From the NCBI GenBank assembly GCA_050872745.1, contig JBNMHL010000002.1:1-51963 (forward strand): a DNA stretch of 51,963 nucleotides. Direction: 5' to 3'. Of the stretch, positions 116 to 51,963 are shown piece by piece; position 1 is the first letter of the stretch, and every line of letters starts with the position of its first letter. The stretch is from Clostridiales bacterium (GTDB lineage Bacteria; Bacillota; Clostridia; Christensenellales; UBA1242). The notes under the pieces were generated by a model. That model did not search any database. It was not told the DNA's origin and worked only from the letters and a program-made list of their open reading frames with translations. The translations under genes were made by a program, and so were the position numbers.

Positions 116-768
116 GTGTTTAGTGCATTACGCAAATCACCACAACAAGACCAAATTATATAGTTCATTGCATCATTATCAATTGAGACATTATACCTTC
201 CGAACCCATTTTCTTTATCAGATAATGCGTGATTGATTGCAGACTTGATATCATTAGCATCAAGAGGTTTAAATTCGAACACTTTACATCTCGAAACAAT
301 TGCTTTTGTCATTGCTATATATGGGTTTTCAGTGGTTGAACCAATAAAGGTAATGTAACCTTTTTCGATCGCTTCAAGCACGCAATCAGATTGAGCTTTG
401 CTCCACCTATGGCATTCATCTAGTAACAAGAATGTTTGCTTGTTGTATAAGTTTAAGTTTGTTTTTGCTTCTTCAATTATCGCTTTAGCATCCACAACGC
501 CTGACGACACAGCATTTAATTTTCTAAAAATCCCATTGCACGTGTTTGCAACAATATTTGCAAGAGTTGTTTTTCCTGTTCCAGGTGGTCCGTAAAAAAT
601 ACAACTACCTAAACTATTAGATCTTATCGCCCTGCTCAAAAAACTATTTTGAGATATAATATGTTTTTGACCATAAAAATTATCAAGAGTTGATGGTCTC
701 ATTCTATCTGCAAGTGGCTGTTTAATATTGAAATAAGTTTCATCATTATAAAATTGATTAGTTTCCAT
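112..768 (-). CDS. rarA: Replication-associated recombination protein A (RarA/MgsA), N-terminal AAA+ part, ended early by a TAG created by a 1-nt frameshift
   Basis: Walker A GPPGTGKTT, Walker B LLLDECHRW and the GDLRNALN sensor region are present. At 218 aa it is about half the usual length. Confidence 0.85.
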   Translation of the reverse strand: METNQFYNDETYFNIKQPLADRMRPSTLDNFYGQKHIISQNSFLSRAIRSNSLGSCIFYGPPGTGKTTLANIVANTCNGIFRKLNAVSSGVVDAKAIIEEAKTNLNLYNKQTFLLLDECHRWSKAQSDCVLEAIEKGYITFIGSTTENPYIAMTKAIVSRCKVFEFKPLDANDIKSAINHALSDKENGFGRYNVSIDNDAMNYIIWSCCGDLRNALNT

Positions 769-780
769 ATTTTATATTAC

Positions 781-905
781 CTGAAGTTGTTAGCAAACAG
801 CCCGATGGGATACTTGCTATCAACAAATGTTAATCAAAACAGTGATACCACAAGATATTGTGGAAATTGCGGTAGCAATTAAAAATTTTAACTCACTTAA
901 ATTTT
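781..905. repeat. Four-hairpin intergenic element, copy A (homologous to 51842-51963 in inverted orientation)
   Basis: By hand alignment, 781-840 matches the reverse complement of 51904-51963 at 52 of 60 positions. Hairpins lie at 786-824 (CCC-loop-GGG tip), 848-864, 865-880 and 882-905. Confidence 0.7.
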
Positions 906-1066
906 CATCACCTAGTTTACATTATAACACACTGAATTTATTTTTTAAACGCTTTTGCTAAAATAATTGTAAACTTTTATATTTGCAAACTCATATAGAA
1001 AACCAATTAAATTTTGAACAAAAACCTTAAATAGACAATTTACAATTTGTATATTTATACACAAAC

Positions 1067-2051: not shown

Positions 2052-2075
2052 AAAAAAACTCCGCATTAAGCGGAG
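2052..2075 (-). terminator. Intrinsic terminator after rnpB
   Basis: CTCCGC/GCGGAG stem (2059-2075) with a 5-nt loop, followed on the minus strand by a U-run (the A-run 2052-2058 on plus). Confidence 0.8.
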
Positions 2076-2077
2076 CT

Positions 2078-2408
2078 ATTAGAATGAAAATAAGCCGAGT
2101 TTTGTTTTAGATGATTATCTATCTAGAATTATCGTTACCGATAATTTCAAGCGGTGTATAGAGAGACTAGCGAGTAGCGTTAAAACATCTCTCAACCTTG
2201 CATCATGTGGAGTTTACAGAACAAAATAGTCACCTATTCTGCTAGTTGGCTCTTACCCAACTTTTCCACCCTTACACACTAAAGTGTGCGGTTTATTTCT
2301 GTTGCACTTGTCTTGAAGTCGCCTTCACTGGCCGTTAGCCAGCACATTACTCTTTGATGCTCGGACTTTCCTCAAGTGATAACACTTGCAATCATCTTTT
2401 CATCTAAC
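2078..2408 (-). ncRNA. rnpB: RNase P RNA, bacterial type A
   Basis: The minus strand carries GAGGAAAGUCCGAGC (2359-2373), CAAGUGCAACAGAAAUAAACCGC, GUAAGGGUGGAAAAGUUGGGUAAGAGCCAAC, GUAAACUCCACAUGAUGCAAGG, CUAGAUAGAUAAUCAUC and ACAAAACUCGGCUUAU. These are colinear with E. coli M1 RNA. P1 pairs roughly 2397-2406 with 2081-2090. Confidence 0.95.
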
Positions 2409-5020: not shown

Positions 5021-6212
5021 TTATATTCTCCTTTATTTTGTTCGATTTTTTGGTTAATTTTAACGGACTCATATCTCTTAATCTTTGAACAATTTGAGAT
5101 AGTTTTTCAATAACATAATCAACATCATCAATAGTAATTTCAGGAGAAAAAGAAAATCTAATTGCGCCGTTAATTAATTCATGGGATAATCCCATCGCCT
5201 TTAAAACATGGCTTTTTTCAAGTGAACCAGATGCACACGCAGATCCAGTTGAAACAGCAATACCTTCCATATCTAAAAGCATTAAAATACTTTCCCCTTC
5301 AATTGCTTTAAAACTTACATTTACAATTCCTGGTGCTTTTTGGTTTTCGTTTCCGTTTATTTTAATATCTGAAATTGAATATTTTAATTTGTTAATAAAA
5401 TAATTTGTTATTTCTTTAATTTTTTTTAAAGAATCATTAAGCAACAACTTGTTAAGTTCCATAGCCTTGCCAAACCCAACAACATTTGCAACATTTGTTG
5501 TCCCGCCACGCTTATTCATTTCTTGCTCACCACCAAGCATAAATTTTTTTATAGGCGTTCCTTTTCTAACGTACAAAGCTCCCATTCCTTTAGGTCCGTG
5601 AATTTTATGTGAAGACATTGATAGCAAATCAATGCCCATATCATCAACATCAAAATCAATAACACTCATTGCTTGAACAGCATCAGTATGAAAATACGCA
5701 CCATAATGCTTAACAGTTTCACCAATAGCTTTTATGTTTTGAATAGTTCCAACTTCATTATTAACACTCATTATTGAAACTAAAATAGTATCTTTTCTTA
5801 AGTTATGAATTAAGTCTGTTAATGAAATTAAACCGGTTTCATCAACTGGAAGATAGGTAATTTCAAAGCCTTCTCTTTCTAAATCCTTACAAGTTTCCAA
5901 AATTGCATGATGCTCAATTTGTGTTGTTATAATATGCTTTCCCTTTTTCTGATTTGCATAAGCGATACCTTTAATAGCCCAATTATCAGCTTCAGTCCCG
6001 CCAGAAGTAAAATAAATTTCAGTTGGGCTAGCCCCTATTGATTTTGCAATAATATCTCTAGCTTTATCAACTCCTTTAGCAGCCTCTCTTCCAAAAGAAT
6101 GCAAACTATTTGCATTTCCATAAATTTTTGTTAAATAAGGCATCATTTCATTCAAAACTTCACCGCTTAAACTTGTTGTTGCAGCATTATCTAAATATAC
6201 TCTTCTATTCAT
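5013..6212 (-). CDS. nifS: Cysteine desulfurase NifS/IscS (class V aminotransferase)
   Basis: PLP-lysine motif [10 protein letters not shown] and catalytic loop SACASG. 399 aa. Confidence 0.9.
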
Positions 6213-35658: not shown

Positions 35659-35747
35659 ATTTTCACACTAAAATTTAAAAGATAGTTTTAATTAAAATAC
35701 ATATAATGAGCTAAACATAAATATCTAAAAGAAAAGCATTTAGCAGT

Positions 35748-43708: not shown

Positions 43709-43966
43709 TTAAGCAGTAAAAATAAAAATCAAAGCTGAAGATAAAACAAAAGCAAGTGATATACATTTGATAGTAATTAAAACAGCATCTGAATTTTCAA
43801 TATCGTTTCTATCTCTAATAACACGAGCAAATCTTCTTGCAAGAACCGCAACAGATAAGCCAACAACTGCTAAGACTATAGCAATTATAATTTCTGTTGA
43901 CTGGAGTCTTGGGAGAAATGAATCCCAAAATTCTGTGAAAAATGAATTTGCTAATAAAAATTTCAT
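43709..43966 (-). CDS. Small two-TM membrane protein, hypothetical
   Basis: 85 aa. A GAGGT SD lies 8 nt upstream of the ATG. It has two hydrophobic segments. Confidence 0.55.
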   Translation of the reverse strand: MKFLLANSFFTEFWDSFLPRLQSTEIIIAIVLAVVGLSVAVLARRFARVIRDRNDIENSDAVLITIKCISLAFVLSSALIFIFTA

Positions 43967-44106: not shown

Positions 44107-45144
44107 TTATTGTTTAAACTTTTTTAATAATAATTTATTCTTTTCATTTTTGGGCACTAACATTAAAAATAAGAACACAATTCCAAAAACACCAGCAATT
44201 GAGTATAGATATGAAACAACAAAACTAAACCCAAATAAACTAAGTATAAAGCCCATACCCATAGTGATGATTATGCAAACATATTTATTTTTGACGCACT
44301 TATTGATATAATTTGAAGCCACAAAAACACACGATATTAATGTTGTGAAAAGCGCCAACCATAAAACCACAGAGGCTAAAACACCATAAACCTTACCAAA
44401 GTTGAACGTTATAGATAGTAAAGGCATTTCAGCATTTAAAATATTTTGCCCCCAAATAAGCATTGTTATTGCATATGAAAGAATTAGAATTCCAAGAATA
44501 GCTGATGAAAAAAGTGCTGTTAAATTAATTTCTTTTTTATTATAGTTTTTTCCTATTTGAAGCAAAAGCACGCCAAGTGTCATAAAATTTGAACACAAAT
44601 AAAACACGAACATTGCAAAACTCATTAAATAATTATTACAAAATTCATTATAACTCGAAAGTGTTCCCCCAATTGCAAACGTTCTAATTCCAATAAAAAG
44701 CAAATAAAAAACTATCATCGGAACAGCAAATAAATTGCAAACTCCAATATTAGAAATCCCACCTGCACAAATATAAAAAGCAAGTAAAATTATTATAATT
44801 TGAATATAATAATTATTACCTTCAAACAATATTTTGCCAACACTTCGAGAACCTGATAAAGTTCCAGCAATGGTAATTATTGCAGATGCACAAATAAAAA
44901 AATTAATCAAAAAACTATATTTACCAAAAAACTGTGAATAATCTTTATTTTCTTTATCTAAGTTCTTTGAGATATTCATTGCTTTTTTTATTAAAAAATA
45001 ATAACAAACCGAAATAATTACTATAAAAGGAACAGAAATATAACCATATTTTGCAAGAAAACAAGAAATTTCTTTACCGCTTGCAAAACCTGCCCCTATG
45101 TAAGTACCTATTATTGTTGAAACTAATAAAATAACTTTTAACAT
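44107..45144 (-). CDS. YkvI-family (COG3949-like) polytopic membrane protein / putative transporter
   Basis: 345 aa with about 10-11 TM helices. The N-terminal GAGFASGKEI motif is characteristic of YkvI-like proteins, from memory. Confidence 0.7.
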   Translation of the reverse strand: MLKVILLVSTIIGTYIGAGFASGKEISCFLAKYGYISVPFIVIISVCYYFLIKKAMNISKNLDKENKDYSQFFGKYSFLINFFICASAIITIAGTLSGSRSVGKILFEGNNYYIQIIIILLAFYICAGGISNIGVCNLFAVPMIVFYLLFIGIRTFAIGGTLSSYNEFCNNYLMSFAMFVFYLCSNFMTLGVLLLQIGKNYNKKEINLTALFSSAILGILILSYAITMLIWGQNILNAEMPLLSITFNFGKVYGVLASVVLWLALFTTLISCVFVASNYINKCVKNKYVCIIITMGMGFILSLFGFSFVVSYLYSIAGVFGIVFLFLMLVPKNEKNKLLLKKFKQ

Positions 45145-45200
45145 ATCAATATTACATATGTTTTCACAACCAGTTTTATGCTTAAGTTCATTTTTTAATC

Positions 45201-45229
45201 AAAAAACATCACACATATTGCGTGATGTT
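45201..45229 (-). terminator. Intrinsic terminator downstream of the four-way-junction element
   Basis: AACATCAC/GTGATGTT stem (45205-45229) followed on the minus strand by UUUUUU. Confidence 0.75.
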
Positions 45230-45238
45230 TTATTTATG

Positions 45239-45336
45239 GGTTTAGGGTGCGGTTTTCGTTTGATAAAATCAAACCGAATTGCATTAATGCAATTCGAAAG
45301 TTTCAACACAGTTGAAACTTGAAAACCGCACTAACC
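45239..45336. other. Near-perfect four-way-junction (cloverleaf-shaped) palindromic element; candidate structured RNA or DNA cruciform
   Basis: The closing stem pairs 45247-45257 with 45321-45331 (11 bp). The arms are 45258-45274 (7 bp), 45275-45296 (a perfect 22-nt palindrome) and 45298-45320 (10 bp). Only one nucleotide at the junction is unpaired, and all pairs are Watson-Crick. Confidence 0.7.
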
Positions 45337-45358
45337 TGCCACCCTGAAATATTTAAAA

Positions 45359-47842
45359 TTAAATAATTACATAATCATAAACTTCTTTAACGATGTTATC
45401 ACCTTTAGCCAATTCATTAACCTTACCAATATTTTCTAAACTATCAATTTTGAAATCACTATTAGCAATAAAAACAAGACTTCCACTTTGGGTTTCAATA
45501 ACGTAATTACTTGATGGTTTTAAAACACTTCCGTATGCCAAGTGTGCATTTTTAAGTTTTGATGGAATGATCTTCGTTCCTCTTTTATTTCGAAGCGTTT
45601 CAAACGCCATGTCATTTTTAATACACTTGTAATTACCACAATCAAATATTAGCGTGAACAAATCATTTGGCAAGCATTGCGATGCAGAAATAACATAATC
45701 ATCAACCCCCAAAGATATGCCCTTAACTCCCAAACTAACTCTTGCTGTCGATTGAATATCATCTTTAGGAACAACTGCGATGTAGCCTTTATGAGTAAAT
45801 AAAACAACATCACTTGAGCTTGTTTTATATTGAACACAAATAACTTCATCTTCTTCTTTTAGCTTAATACCCGCAATTGATTGTTTACTTGCAAAATACT
45901 CCTCAACTTTTGATACTTTAATCATTCCTAGTTTCGTAACAAAAATCAATTCATCATCTTTGTTGCTTTCATTCAACTCCAAAATTGTAACAATTTTTTC
46001 TTTACTTTTTAAAGATTTATAGTGTTGTGAAATATTAGCACCACGATCTTTAAACTTACATTGATCAAGATTTGCAACATCAATTTTAACACAGTTACCA
46101 ATATTAGTGAACAAATAAATTGATTTATTAGTTAAAGTTGGAACAAAGATTGAAGGCACTTCAAATAACGTTCCATTTTGATTTAATGTTTTCGAAGCTA
46201 AATTATAACTTTTTTGATTAACGGCTTTAATTGTATTTTTAGGAGTTGTTACAACATAAACGCTTTCAACATCTTCATCTATATATCCACTTTCTTCAGA
46301 TTCAATAGTTATGCTATCGGCATCTAAAAACTCACTTTTTCTTGGCTTGTCATATTTTTTACTTATTTCACAAAGTTCTTGTTTAACAATTTTCATTTGC
46401 AATTTTTCACTTTTTAATATTGCAGTAAATCTTTTAATTAAGTCTTTTAATCTATTCAATTCGGCAATTAATTTATTTACTTCAAGACTTGTTAACCTTG
46501 CCAATCTCATATCTAAAATAGCTTGAGCTTGAACTTCAGTTAAAGTAAATGTTTCAATTAATCTAATCTTTGCATCTGTTGTGCTTTTACTTGTTTTTAT
46601 AATTCTAACAACTTCATCAATATTATTAATAGCAATAAGCAACCCTTCTAAAATATGCTCTTTTTTCAAACAAGCTTCAAGGTCAAACTTGGTTCTGTTA
46701 TATATAACTTTTTGCTGAAAATTAACATAATATTCTAAAATTTCTTTTAAAGATAATTGCTTAGGTTTTCCATCGGCAATGGCTACCATATTAGCATTGA
46801 AATTGCATTCTAAATCGGTATTCTTATAAAGATAATTTAAAATTGTGTTAACTTTTGCATCTTTTTTAAGTTTTATAACCGCTCTAGTTCCATTTCGATC
46901 TGATTCATCCAAAATATCTGATATTGCACTCAAACAACCATTTGGATCATTTTCTTTTAAAGTTGCAATTCTTTGCAATAAAGTTGCCTTATTAACTTGA
47001 TAAGGAATTTCGGTTATTACGATATTCTTTTTACCATTATCGCTATTTTCAATATGACACTTTGATCTTATAATAACCTTTCCCTTACCGGTTTCATATA
47101 CTTGCTTAATTTCACTTGTTGATAAAATATAAGCACCCGTTGGAAAATCAGGGCCAGGCATTATTCTCATAAGATCTCTAAGTGGAATATTTCTATCATC
47201 AATATACGCACAAACAGCATCACATGCTTCTTTTAAATTATGTGTTGGAATATTTGTTGCTAAACCAACAGCAATACCATATGCACCATTAACAAGCAGA
47301 TTTGGAAATCTTCCTGGGAGCATAACTGGCTCTTTACATGAATCATCAAAGTTTAACATCCATGGAACTGTTTCTTTGTCAATATCACGCAAAAGTTCTA
47401 GAGCAATTGGAGCCAATTTTGCTTCAGTGTAACGCATTGCGGCAGCTGAGTCACCATCAACACTACCAAAGTTTCCATGCCCATTAACCAAAACTTCTTC
47501 CATATTAAAGTCTTGTGCCATTCTAACCATAGTGTCGTAGATACTTTTATCACCATGAGGGTGATATTTACCCATGCAATCACCCACAATTCTGGCACTT
47601 TTTCTAAATGGCCTATCAGGCAACACACCAACTTCAAGCATGCTATATAAAACACGCCTTTGAACTGGTTTTAGCCCATCTTCAACTCTAGGCAAAGCTC
47701 TATCCATAATAACATATTCACTATATGGCAACATACTTTCATGGATAACTTGTTCTACTGATTTTGTTACAACATTGCCATCATAGATTGAGTAATCTAT
47801 TTTAGGTTTTTCACTACTACTTTTTGTTTTGTTTTCAGCCAT
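45359..47842 (-). CDS. parC: Type IIA topoisomerase subunit A (GyrA/ParC family); ParC-like
   Basis: RALP..DGLKPVQRRVLY, YHPHGD and AAMRYTEAKL. I found no QRRGGKG GyrA box in the C-terminal beta-pinwheel, and there is no dnaA/recF context. The ATG at 47842 has an AAGGAAA SD. Confidence 0.85.
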   Translation of the reverse strand: MAENKTKSSSEKPKIDYSIYDGNVVTKSVEQVIHESMLPYSEYVIMDRALPRVEDGLKPVQRRVLYSMLEVGVLPDRPFRKSARIVGDCMGKYHPHGDKSIYDTMVRMAQDFNMEEVLVNGHGNFGSVDGDSAAAMRYTEAKLAPIALELLRDIDKETVPWMLNFDDSCKEPVMLPGRFPNLLVNGAYGIAVGLATNIPTHNLKEACDAVCAYIDDRNIPLRDLMRIMPGPDFPTGAYILSTSEIKQVYETGKGKVIIRSKCHIENSDNGKKNIVITEIPYQVNKATLLQRIATLKENDPNGCLSAISDILDESDRNGTRAVIKLKKDAKVNTILNYLYKNTDLECNFNANMVAIADGKPKQLSLKEILEYYVNFQQKVIYNRTKFDLEACLKKEHILEGLLIAINNIDEVVRIIKTSKSTTDAKIRLIETFTLTEVQAQAILDMRLARLTSLEVNKLIAELNRLKDLIKRFTAILKSEKLQMKIVKQELCEISKKYDKPRKSEFLDADSITIESEESGYIDEDVESVYVVTTPKNTIKAVNQKSYNLASKTLNQNGTLFEVPSIFVPTLTNKSIYLFTNIGNCVKIDVANLDQCKFKDRGANISQHYKSLKSKEKIVTILELNESNKDDELIFVTKLGMIKVSKVEEYFASKQSIAGIKLKEEDEVICVQYKTSSSDVVLFTHKGYIAVVPKDDIQSTARVSLGVKGISLGVDDYVISASQCLPNDLFTLIFDCGNYKCIKNDMAFETLRNKRGTKIIPSKLKNAHLAYGSVLKPSSNYVIETQSGSLVFIANSDFKIDSLENIGKVNELAKGDNIVKEVYDYVII

Positions 47843-47852
47843 TGCATTTTCC

Positions 47853-49817
47853 TTATTTTTTCTTAGTTTCAAATGTGTCTACTTTATTAAAGTTTGCATT
47901 CTCAATAATATATTTTTTTCTTTCAGTGATATTATCACCCATTAAAATATCAATCATTCTTTCTGCCTCAGCAGCATCTTCCAAGTTTACTTGAACCAAA
48001 ACCCTTTTTGATGGATCCATAGTTGTTTCCCAAAGTTGCTCCGCGGTCATTTCACCTAAACCTTTAAATCTTTGCACGGTATAACCAGTTGTTGCCTTAC
48101 CCACAACCTTATCATAATCTTCATCATTATAGATATAATGAACAACACCATTTTTAGTAATTTTATATAGCGGAGCAATTCCAATATAAACGTGACCATC
48201 AATAATAAGCTGACGCATATACCTATAGAAAAATGTTAATAAAATTGCACGGATATGTGCGCCATCTTGATCGGCATCGGCTAAAATAACAACTTTATTA
48301 TACTTTAAGTTATCAATATTAAAAGTGTCGCCAATATTGGTTCCTAATGCACTAATGATAGTTCTGATTTCTTCATTTTCAAGTATTTGATTTAGCCTCT
48401 TCTTCTCAACATTTAGAGGTTTTCCTCTTAATGGTAAAATTGCTTGAAAGCTTCTATCACGAGCTTGTTTTGCAGATCCGCCCGCGCTATCACCCTCAAC
48501 GATAAATACTTCATTAAGTAAAGCATTTTTTCCAGTGCAACAGCTAAGTTTTCCAACAAGAGAATAGGTTTCAACAGCACTTTTTTGCCTTGTTAAGTCT
48601 TTAGCTTTCTTTGCTGCTTCCCTTGCCTTTGCAGCAAGTTTTGCTTTATTAACGAGAGTTGTTATAACTTCTTTGCAATTTTTACTATCACCAAATTTAA
48701 TTAAAGCATCATAAACAATATTCTCAACTTCAGTTTTAGCTTCAGGATTTCCAAGCTTAGTTTTAGTTTGACCTTCGAACTGAACATTTTTCATTTTAAT
48801 AGCCAAGATTGCAGTGATACCTTCACGATAATCTTCACCTTGCAAGTTAGCATCTTTTTCCTTTAGTATACCTAATTTTCTTGCAATCTCATTTATAGCT
48901 CGAGTTAAACCAGCTTTTAAACCAGCTTCATGAGTTCCGCCTTCACTTGTTGGAATATTATTAACATAACTAAAGATATTTTCAGAAAAACTATCAGTGT
49001 GTTGAATGGCGCAAACAAGATCCACAACATCGGTCGATCCTTCTATATATATAGGATCTTTATACAAAACGCCCTTACCATTGTTTAAATATTCAATAAA
49101 GTCACGCAACCCATTTGTATATTTATAAGTTTTAACCTCGTGTAAATATTCACCAATTTCATCTTTATTATAATTGTCGGTTAAAATTAACTCAACACCC
49201 TTATTTAAAAAAGCTAACTCTTTCAATCTTTTCTTAATTGTGTCAAAATCAAACTTAAGATCACCAAAAATCAAATCATCAGGCATAAAAGTAACTTTAG
49301 TTCCACTTTTTTTAGTTTTTCCAACGCATTTTAATTGAGTAACTGGAACACCACCCGATACTTTCTTACCTTTTCTGATGCTTTCAAATCTCATATGATA
49401 TTCATAACAATCTTTATAAACGGTTACTTCAAGCCATTTACTCAATGCATTCGTAACACTCGCACCAACACCATGAAGACCACCAGAATATTTATAATTG
49501 TCATTATTAAACTTTCCACCAGCGTGAAGTTGAGTAAAAACAACCTGAACACCACTTACTTTTAAAGTTGGATGCTTATCCACAGGAATTCCACGACCAT
49601 TATCTTCAACCGTTATACTCCCATCAGAATTCATAGTCACTTCTATTCTACTACCATAACCATTACTAATTTCATCAATTGAGTTATCAACTATCTCCCA
49701 TAAAATATGATGAAGTCCTTTTGGACCTGTTGTTCCAATATACATTCCAGGCCTCAACCTAACCGCATCAAGCCCTTCAAGCACCACAATATTTTTACTA
49801 TTATACTCTGCACCCAA
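47853..49817 (-). CDS. parE: Type IIA topoisomerase subunit B (GyrB/ParE family); ParE-like
   Basis: VLEGLDAVRLRPGMYIG, the GHKL ATPase domain, TOPRIM EGDSAGG and DADQDGAHI. I prefer the TTG at 49817, which has a GAGGTG SD 6 nt upstream. The track GTG at 49826 lies inside that SD. Confidence 0.85.
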   Translation of the reverse strand: MGAEYNSKNIVVLEGLDAVRLRPGMYIGTTGPKGLHHILWEIVDNSIDEISNGYGSRIEVTMNSDGSITVEDNGRGIPVDKHPTLKVSGVQVVFTQLHAGGKFNNDNYKYSGGLHGVGASVTNALSKWLEVTVYKDCYEYHMRFESIRKGKKVSGGVPVTQLKCVGKTKKSGTKVTFMPDDLIFGDLKFDFDTIKKRLKELAFLNKGVELILTDNYNKDEIGEYLHEVKTYKYTNGLRDFIEYLNNGKGVLYKDPIYIEGSTDVVDLVCAIQHTDSFSENIFSYVNNIPTSEGGTHEAGLKAGLTRAINEIARKLGILKEKDANLQGEDYREGITAILAIKMKNVQFEGQTKTKLGNPEAKTEVENIVYDALIKFGDSKNCKEVITTLVNKAKLAAKAREAAKKAKDLTRQKSAVETYSLVGKLSCCTGKNALLNEVFIVEGDSAGGSAKQARDRSFQAILPLRGKPLNVEKKRLNQILENEEIRTIISALGTNIGDTFNIDNLKYNKVVILADADQDGAHIRAILLTFFYRYMRQLIIDGHVYIGIAPLYKITKNGVVHYIYNDEDYDKVVGKATTGYTVQRFKGLGEMTAEQLWETTMDPSKRVLVQVNLEDAAEAERMIDILMGDNITERKKYIIENANFNKVDTFETKKK

Positions 49818-50314
49818 AATAATCACCTCATATAATTAATAAAACTTTAAAAGTATGACATACCAATTAGGACTATAAAAACAATTTTATAATCATAAAT
49901 TAAAGTTCTAACTATATTGTTTTAAGTTAAAAATTAAAAAAAATCAAATATATTTCACAAATTTTTAATAATTTATGCAACTTGAAAAAAATCACAATAA
50001 TAAAAATGAAGTGTATTATAAAATAATTTACGCATAAATATTTATATTATTGAATATGTATAAACAATTTACTCATTGATACTGCATTATTATTTAATAA
50101 ATTGTATATTTATTTTTAACAACAACCTTGATTGCGTGTATTTTTATACCGATAATTGTATTATTATACCACACAATACGCTCTTAACAACAACTTTATT
50201 TATTGCATAACTTTGATAATTTATTAATAAAATATAATATAATAAGTTCAAACAAATTAATTATTATATACATCTTGAATTAATCAAAAAAACATTAAAA
50301 TCTCTGAGGGTATT

Positions 50315-51492: not shown

Positions 51493-51585
51493 ATTATTAA
51501 TAAAACTCTAGTATTCATATTGACAAATTAAATACAAACTATGCGATAAAAATTTAAGCAAGTTAAAATTTTTAATTGCTATTTC

Positions 51586-51683
51586 AACTCCTTGATAAAT
51601 CAATGTATCACTATTTTGATTCTGCGTCAGTTTATATCAAATGCCACTCCGTGTCGCTTACATAAACTTCCTTGAGTATAAAC
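51586..51683. repeat. Tandem 98-nt unit, copy 1
   Basis: Identical to 51734-51831 at 93 of 98 positions by hand alignment. The period is 148 nt. Confidence 0.9.
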
Positions 51684-51733
51684 AATGTGATGTTGCGTTG
51701 TTCACGTTGTTTACAACCCAAGTTGCTAAACGC

Positions 51734-51831
51734 AACTCCTTGATAAATCATGGTATCATTGTTTTGATTCTGCGTCAGTTTATATCAAATGCCACTCCGT
51801 GTCGCTTGCATAAACTTCCTTGAGTATAAAC
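51734..51831. repeat. Tandem 98-nt unit, copy 2
   Basis: See copy 1. The differences are confined to positions 18, 19, 26, 28 and 75 of the unit. Confidence 0.9.
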
Positions 51832-51841
51832 TATAGGAAGT

Positions 51842-51963
51842 AAATTTTGAAACGAGTTCAAAATTTGTGCTAAAGCACCGCAAAGATACTCTTTGCTCTT
51901 CCAGTTTTGATTAACATCAGTTGCTGGCAAGTATCCCTTCGGGCTGTTTGCCGACAACTTCCG
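51842..51963. repeat. Four-hairpin intergenic element, copy B (inverted homologue of 781-905); truncated by the window end
   Basis: Hairpins lie at 51842-51866, 51867-51878, 51880-51896 and 51920-51958 (CCCUUCGGG tip), with the conserved linker GTTTTGATTAACAT. It aligns with the reverse complement of 781-905. Confidence 0.7.

Follow-up and report, generated by a model that had tools for sequence, protein, structure and literature searches.

What is a nearly perfect four-way junction doing at the end of a topoisomerase operon? This question is raised by a contig of an uncultured Clostridiales bacterium of the human gut (JBNMHL010000002.1, assembly GCA_050872745.1), of which we analyzed positions 1 to 51,963 (here called the window). 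In the 214-nt gap between parC and a gene encoding a YkvI-family membrane protein (ykvI), an 85-nt sequence folds into a closing stem and three hairpins. The prediction that drew attention to this element had considered an aptamer upstream of ykvI, a structured 3' untranslated region (UTR) or 3'-derived small RNA (sRNA) of the topoisomerase operon, a DNA-level site, and a small miniature inverted-repeat transposable element (MITE). We give an approximately even chance to the reading that the element is a fossil, single-copy, MITE-like nested palindrome in the 3' UTR of parEC, where it would be co-transcribed and would act, if it has any effect, as a passive RNA structure.

On reading the sequence, the core of the element proved to be a perfect four-way junction of 37 pairs, all of them Watson-Crick (Table 1). 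No more than 11 of its 85 bases are unpaired, namely, a single base at the junction (45297) and the bases of the loops, which measure 3 to 4 nt. The original prediction had described exactly this closing stem, these three arms and this one free base, and it had also correctly given the length of the gap and the distance of 55 nt to the ykvI ATG. It further held that both strands fold identically. Indeed, the core alone reached -42.4 kcal/mol on either strand, with pair probabilities mostly above 0.97. Its extension of the closing stem was only partly right: an outer helix does exist, but it pairs 45244-46 with 45335-37 and 45238-41 with 45341-44, and not 45239-44 with 45332-36. This outer helix is real but weak, and its pair 45244/45337 is lost, or is G-T on the plus strand, in most related strains.

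Folding the whole gap as minus-strand RNA gave a minimum free energy structure of -69.9 kcal/mol, consisting of the junction and an independent 13-bp terminator hairpin (z = -8.4), and none of 200 shuffled sequences was equally stable. Similarly, the junction was recovered when the gap was folded as plus-strand DNA (z = -10.5). In a 110-nt sliding scan of the window, which is AT rich (29% GC), the junction was the top structural outlier on both strands (z = -7.4 and -6.3), the next unrelated site having a z of -4.8. Furthermore, the pattern of a perfect closing stem enclosing three abutting perfect hairpins had the junction as its sole match in the window and was not found once in 30 dinucleotide shuffles. 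The junction is statistically extraordinary and lies far beyond chance.

The genes around the element are all on the minus strand, in the order parE (49826..47853), parC, the 214-nt gap, ykvI, a conserved 85-amino-acid (aa) open reading frame (ORF) and valS. Along this coding strand, the parC stop is followed by 14 nt, the element, 6 nt, a terminator hairpin, its U-run, 55 nt and the ykvI ATG. The terminator had been predicted and was confirmed, with the hairpin at 45203-45231 and the T-run at 45200-45205 (minus). Because the hairpin contains a G-U pair, the terminator is specific to the minus strand. Since all genes are on the minus strand and the element stands between the parC stop and the terminator, it is located in the parEC 3' UTR.

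To this arrangement we compared five relatives found via the flanking proteins, with a ParC identity of 75% (L003, L004, L051 and L052) or 67% (L053). The element was absent from all five parC-ykvI gaps, also when these were searched with a covariance model of the element (R1). These gaps are only 62 to 105 nt long. In each, no more than a few bases separate the parC stop from a single terminator hairpin with its T-run, and ykvI starts about 40 to 50 nt after the terminator, except in L053, where a small extra gene is found there instead. The T-run of the relatives and the TTG(A/T)T(T/C) motif that follows it align with the window terminator, which makes this terminator ancestral and the element an addition of about 115 bases between stop and terminator. 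Indeed, deleting 45237-45349 together with one TATTTA copy restores the layout of the relatives. As the terminator stems of two relatives read GGGTTA...TAACCC, we also considered that the outer GGGT/ACCC helix might be left over from the ancestral terminator. This idea was dropped, since the present terminator and its T-run align with those of the relatives and the motif in common has only some 7 nt.

In its own species-level lineage, the element was present with the same stems in 13 of 13 sequences from independent assemblies (the window, L001, L002, L009 and L023-L031). Their identity ranges from 95.7 to 100% over the element stretch, and over 8 kb that of L009 to the window is 95.4%. The lineage is isolated: in protein searches, the next matches outside this cluster were relatives at 57% (YkvI) or 75% (ParC) identity.

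The candidate inserted unit comprises 113 nt and is bounded by two TATTTA direct repeats. Its GC content is 41% (over 45238-45344), compared to 21% in the rest of the gap. Like a MITE, the unit is small (<300 bp) and non-coding; a 54-aa ORF overlapping it on the plus strand was rejected as a gene, as a 1-nt indel in a T-run frameshifts it in most related strains. It also has terminal inverted repeats: together, the 11-bp closing stem and the imperfect outer helices form inverted ends of about 20 to 25 nt (GGGT..AGG.GTGCGGTTTTC). Among the options of the original prediction, a structured 3' UTR of the topoisomerase operon and a small MITE fit best, the element lying between the parC stop and a position-conserved terminator and being an insertion with respect to the five relatives.

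We hypothesize that the element goes back to a single insertion event in the ancestor of this uncultured gut Clostridia species-level lineage. A non-coding nested palindrome of about 113 nt, with imperfect terminal inverted repeats around three perfect hairpins, would have entered the space between the parC stop and the intrinsic terminator that parE-parC already had. Since then, the topoisomerase IV mRNA would have carried this palindrome in its 3' UTR, folded into a compact four-way junction immediately ahead of the terminator hairpin. The element would neither sense a ligand nor control ykvI. If it has an effect, it could act as a barrier to 3'-to-5' exonucleases or as a site for a double-strand-specific RNase that sets the lifetime of the parEC mRNA. 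With coaxial stacking, the junction might present uninterrupted helices of about 21 and 16 bp, a length sufficient for such an RNase. Its origin would most likely be a small mobile palindromic element, maybe a distant relative of a mobile family of four-way junctions that we found in the same genome (see below).

The gap has 13 variable sites in the lineage, of which three are in the core, two of them loop bases and the third the loop-closing base of arm 2, which is uncompensated. Overall, 1 of 74 stem bases was variable, compared to 12 of the 140 other bases of the gap. This difference (Fisher p = 0.028) provides modest support for constraint on the stems, or for their correction against each other. 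No compensatory change was seen in the element, the 13 sequences differing at only three core positions. Because of this lack of covariation, selection at the RNA level cannot be separated from selection at the DNA level in these data. According to the original prediction, a dedicated function at this locus would be contradicted either by absence from orthologous gaps without covariation or by many near-identical copies in the genome. The former is what we observed; the latter is not.

When R1 was run over the window with filters off, the best non-self matches were weak, at 51819-51914 (+) and 828-928 (-), with 18.5 and 15.3 bits. Both are inside a repeat common to the two ends of the window. 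This repeat belongs to a dispersed family of about 135 nt, without an Rfam match, which is composed of AACTATG at the 5' end, a 5-bp closing stem with three abutting hairpins, GTTTTGATT, and a second hairpin or an alternative 3' module. One family site, located between two genes, is filled in L023 and L026 (the second copy listed for L026 in Table 1) and empty in L029 and in the window at about 35689-35696. A 9-bp direct duplication (TTTATATTA) borders the filled copy, in which terminal inverted repeats are absent. Because of this filled/empty polymorphism and the duplication, the family is mobile, and because it lacks terminal inverted repeats, it is no classical MITE. Its four-helix fold is 94.6% paired over nine distinct copies, and compensatory changes were found at 12 of 23 pairs, a level that was reached in none of 500 shuffles and that collapsed in slid controls; the alignment used for both values was fitted to the model. 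Tandem arrays of the family are also located downstream of murG, a rarA-like gene has one copy as its 5' leader, and contigs, including the window, end inside the family repeat. Two tandem 109-nt units at 51585-51693 and 51733-51841 (92% identical, with a period of 148 nt) are hybrid or rearranged copies of the family with the alternative 3' module.

The family resembles the parC element in having a closing stem and three abutting hairpins in the same order and orientation, and the arms themselves are alike: an A/T-rich one comes first, AATTGC..GCAATT second and TTGAT..ATCAA third. However, the conserved flanks (AACTATG on the 5' side, GTTTTGATT on the 3' side), the second hairpin module, the 5-bp closing stem and the 9-bp target duplication are found only in the family, while the 11-bp closing stem and the inverted ends are found only in the parC element. 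A family model built without the parC element (R2) aligned the parC core arm for arm without any non-canonical pair (13.0 bits). The alignment was local, covering model positions 7 to 77 and leaving the flanks unmatched. A genuine diverged family copy stripped of its flanks scored only 15.0 bits with R2, so that this score test has little power. From these sequence comparisons, kinship of the element and the family appears plausible but is unproven. Still, four-way-junction elements are tolerated in this genome and spread within it, so that an arrival of the parC element by insertion becomes more probable a priori. The movement of the family without terminal inverted repeats, and the maintenance of its four helices by compensatory changes, would also be compatible with a bolder proposal, which we consider doubtful: the parC element and the family may be two branches of one undescribed mobile non-coding class that is recognized as a folded four-way junction, either as RNA or as single-stranded DNA. 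The copy at parC would then be a member of this class that became fixed, was possibly domesticated and now belongs to the topoisomerase IV mRNA.

Several observations weigh against a MITE-like insertion of mobile origin, above all the copy number. MITEs are repeated by definition, whereas only one copy of the element was found. Exact search with up to three mismatches, blastn with word size 7, nhmmer and R1 with filters off all failed to reveal a second copy in the 52-kb window, and R1 found none in 120 kb of related loci either; these structure-model searches covered the window and the related loci and not the complete genome. Among 185,579 species-representative genomes, the closing-stem pattern gave 17 matches. 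Only one, the orthologous locus in a sister strain, was a true site; the remaining 16 were unrelated inverted repeats, all but one in genomes of 53 to 68% GC. Nothing related was found in metagenome, viral, plasmid or phage collections: in metagenomes, the arm pattern had no match and the closing-stem pattern 19, all unrelated long inverted repeats; of three scans of viral contigs, two yielded nothing and the last a single 20-mer shared by chance with a GC-rich phage contig; and blastn against plasmids and phages gave nothing relevant. Additionally, the 6-bp TATTTA repeat is weak evidence, its chance expectation being 4 to 7%. As to the repeat family, the parC element lacks its conserved flanks and second module, and the R2 score on the parC core is not significant (E = 2.3 on the scale of the window, rank 24). 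Finally, the invariance of the stems could reflect hairpin-templated correction and not selection, and both the transcription of the element and its effect on mRNA stability are predictions. The plain REP/MITE family that the original prediction had offered as an alternative does not fit, since there are not many near-identical copies but one in everything searched.

In the course of these searches, the exact 20-mer GGGTGCGGTTTTCGTTTGAT, which corresponds to the left end of the element, was found without the structure at 5361-5380 of the phage contig (L054, from IMG/VR). We judged it a coincidence. Long inverted repeats based on the same 11-mer, GTGCGGTTTTC/GAAAACCGCAC, are also present in several unrelated GC-rich genomes (the genome and metagenome loci L007, L010, L019, L042, L048 and others). 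They are no evidence of a shared family, because a palindromic search pattern is expected to yield them.

Could the element instead act as a regulatory RNA? In the minus-strand order of structure, terminator and ORF, the original prediction had seen the layout of a riboswitch, i.e., of an aptamer or attenuator controlling ykvI via the downstream terminator. This order is indeed present, but the partition function of the 214-nt gap revealed no competing alternative pairing, the element (mostly >0.97) and the terminator (0.95 to 1.0) being paired simultaneously. A single unpaired junction base leaves no ligand pocket, two loop bases differ between strains, no upstream promoter is conserved, Rfam gave no match, and the five relatives keep the spacing from terminator to ATG at ykvI without having the element. 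This is in good agreement with the remark, already made in the original prediction, that an all-Watson-Crick design is unusual for an aptamer, and the same applies to the minimal loops. We consider control of ykvI by a riboswitch extremely improbable. A functional sRNA of about 160 nt, consisting of the junction and the terminator, derived from the 3' UTR or made independently and acting in trans or by binding a protein, would account for stems that stay invariant across strains diverged by about 5% while loops change, and a proper terminator after a structure is the usual anatomy of 3'-derived sRNAs. A promoter-like match at 45402-45374, inside the 3' end of parC, could serve an independent transcript. 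However, such matches are at background level (7 found, 5.0 expected), and the invariant T of this -10 box is replaced by C in 12 of 12 related sequences. The structure also offers almost no single-stranded sequence for pairing with a target, three of the 11 unpaired bases being variable, its 3- to 4-nt loops carry no recognizable motif, and it is limited to one lineage and belongs to no Rfam family. An sRNA thus seems unlikely to us.

The perfection of the stems invites explanations at the level of DNA. All-Watson-Crick pairing, the absence of G-U pairs and minimal loops are the signature expected if palindromes are formed on a DNA template, and template switching during replication has been documented both as a source of perfect hairpins and as a means of maintaining them (PMC8794818, PMC5941160). 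The element could thus have arisen in place, by stepwise perfection of inverted repeats, as a selectively neutral structure without any mobile element, and its restriction to one copy in one lineage would be accounted for. However, four independent nested perfect palindromes without slack would need several successive events, and no intermediate forms were seen in the 13 strains or the relatives. Moreover, a GC content of 41% in a spacer that otherwise has 21% looks foreign, and the invariance of the stems suggests constraint. We regard such an origin as improbable. A DNA-level site, i.e., protein-binding palindromes, a cruciform or supercoil-sensitive element, or a folded single-strand signal for recombination or replication, would explain why both strands fold identically and why each arm is a perfect palindrome, as in the operators of dimeric proteins. 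Arm 3 has half-sites that we take to be parS-like (GTTTCA/TGAAAC), but with the wrong spacing, and the position beside parEC invites a link with supercoiling. Against this, the neighboring genes, encoding ParE, ParC, YkvI, the 85-aa protein, ValS, DeoC and Cdd, include no recombinase, relaxase or replication gene, nor one for an integrase, a reverse transcriptase or a HUH transposase, as would accompany a folded-DNA site of the integron attC, retron or IS200 type. The GC skew does not switch within the 52-kb window, and the element is therefore not at an origin or terminus. In addition, the 11-bp closing stem spans 63 nt and cannot be extruded from a duplex as a simple cruciform, and the relatives manage without the element. 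A DNA-level role is, in our view, very unlikely.

The MITE-like insertion was then compared with described systems. It shares with bacterial MITEs the small size, the lack of coding capacity, the inverted ends and a possible short target duplication. Like them, it is situated beside coding sequence, in this case between a stop codon and a terminator, with expected co-transcription and a very stable fold. Unlike bacterial MITEs, it was found in one copy, has no known cognate transposase and forms a perfect four-way junction instead of one long hairpin, and its sequence is similar to no described MITE family. REP and BIME elements are also extragenic palindromes downstream of genes. REPs are single hairpins of 20 to 40 nt; they carry a GTAG or CGTC tag, number tens to hundreds of copies and are associated with RAYT transposases. 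Neither their size nor their tag, copy number or RAYT link was seen here. As no described family fits and the element is not repeated as a MITE would be, we file it as an atypical case among small structured palindromic intergenic insertions. MITEs that fold robustly in transcripts include RUP, NEMIS/Correia, ERIC, Bcr1 and EFAR, and a passive RNA structure affecting mRNA stability or processing has been reported for transcribed MITE/REP-type insertions; for REP/BIME, roles in mRNA stabilization, termination and supercoiling have been proposed (PMC3733652). Hairpins attributed to template switching resemble the element in their perfect Watson-Crick stems, minimal loops and abrupt appearance in one lineage, but this mechanism explains single hairpins, while the element consists of four nested palindromes abutting without spare bases (PMC8794818).

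We also searched Rfam 15, the element region up to E = 10 and the whole window at gathering scores. In agreement with the original prediction, the element region matched no known family. The best match, tsr32 (RF02581), had 20.3 bits, far below the gathering cutoff of 98. This intergenic sRNA of Staphylococcus aureus, which is known only as a transcript detected by RNA-seq and reverse transcription-PCR (PMC4752604), likewise has a closing helix that encloses three hairpins, but 8 nt of the element take the place of a 40-nt insertion of the model, and the organism is unrelated. An identification as tsr32 was rejected. A tRNA-like cloverleaf was rejected as well, since ARAGORN found no tRNA or tmRNA in the window and the loops have 3 to 4 nt and not 7. 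Finally, a simple terminator scanner flagged arm 2 and missed the real terminator, which we judged an artifact of its tail rule.

Taken alone, the element is a curiosity, although it is among the cleanest natural four-way junctions and lies in what is predicted to be the mRNA tail of an essential topoisomerase operon. It opens no new riboswitch class. What it does provide is a natural case in which to ask whether a perfect structure, apparently inserted recently, alters the stability or termination of the transcript of an essential operon. It also led to a structurally similar repeat family that is mobile, has no inverted ends and displays real covariation of its helices. Should the two be related, this lineage would offer both a new type of structured mobile element and an opportunity to examine the fixation of such elements in 3' UTRs.

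Table 1. Features of the parC-ykvI gap and copies of the repeat family (window positions unless a locus is named)
Feature	Position	Strand	Remarks
Core four-way junction	45247..45331	-	Predicted tail of parEC transcript; both strands fold identically; by folding, shuffles and pattern search
Closing stem, plus-strand 5' half, GTGCGGTTTTC	45247..45257		11 bp with 45321-45331; sequence and pair probabilities
Closing stem, plus-strand 3' half, GAAAACCGCAC	45321..45331		Sequence and pair probabilities
Arm 1, 7-bp hairpin, 3-nt loop AAA	45258..45274		Loop base 45265 variable between strains
Arm 2, perfect 22-nt palindrome, 9 bp and loop TTAA	45275..45296		Variable at loop base 45287 and loop-closing base 45283 (uncompensated)
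Arm 3, 10-bp hairpin, 3-nt loop ACA	45298..45320		Invariant in 13/13 sequences
Outer imperfect helix, left half (GGGT..AGG)	45238..45246		Pairs with 45335-45344; folding
Outer imperfect helix, right half (CCT..ACCC)	45335..45344		Folding
Candidate inserted unit, 113 nt	45237..45349		Bounded by two TATTTA direct repeats; comparison with relatives
TATTTA, left copy of possible 6-bp target-site duplication	45231..45236		Only suggestive (chance 4-7%)
TATTTA, right copy of possible target-site duplication	45350..45355		Only suggestive (chance 4-7%)
parEC intrinsic terminator, 13-bp hairpin and U-run	45200..45231	-	One G-U; position matches the single post-parC terminator of relatives
parC, topoisomerase IV subunit A	45359..47872	-	Stop codon 14 nt upstream of outer helix
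YkvI-family membrane protein gene	44107..45144	-	Downstream of terminator; without evident Shine-Dalgarno sequence, here or in relatives
54-aa ORF overlapping element	45158..45322	+	Judged spurious
Repeat-family copies in window	766-928; 51531-51963	-; +	Family four-way junctions at 834-917 and 51537-51910
Repeat-family copies elsewhere	L026 35-259, 16080-16225; L029 3500-3589; L031 3217-3660, 19481-19543; L023 19409-19554		

The genes downstream of the element gave some minor observations. We compared the stretches upstream of ykvI in five lineages (window 45145-45200, L003 1060-1102, L004 880-911, L051 4410-4452 and L052 3035-3071). None has a Shine-Dalgarno sequence, and an A/T-rich box resembling a -10 element is present a few bases before the ATG. 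The ykvI mRNA may be leaderless or have a very short leader, with a promoter overlapping the tail of the parC terminator. The 85-aa ORF (43709-43966, minus) is hydrophobic and without a Pfam match. An ORF of 85 aa is found 3' of ykvI in every related locus that reaches that far (the strain loci, L003, L004 and L053). The only Rfam match at gathering level in the window was a class A bacterial RNase P RNA at 2075-2407 (minus), with 259.9 bits.

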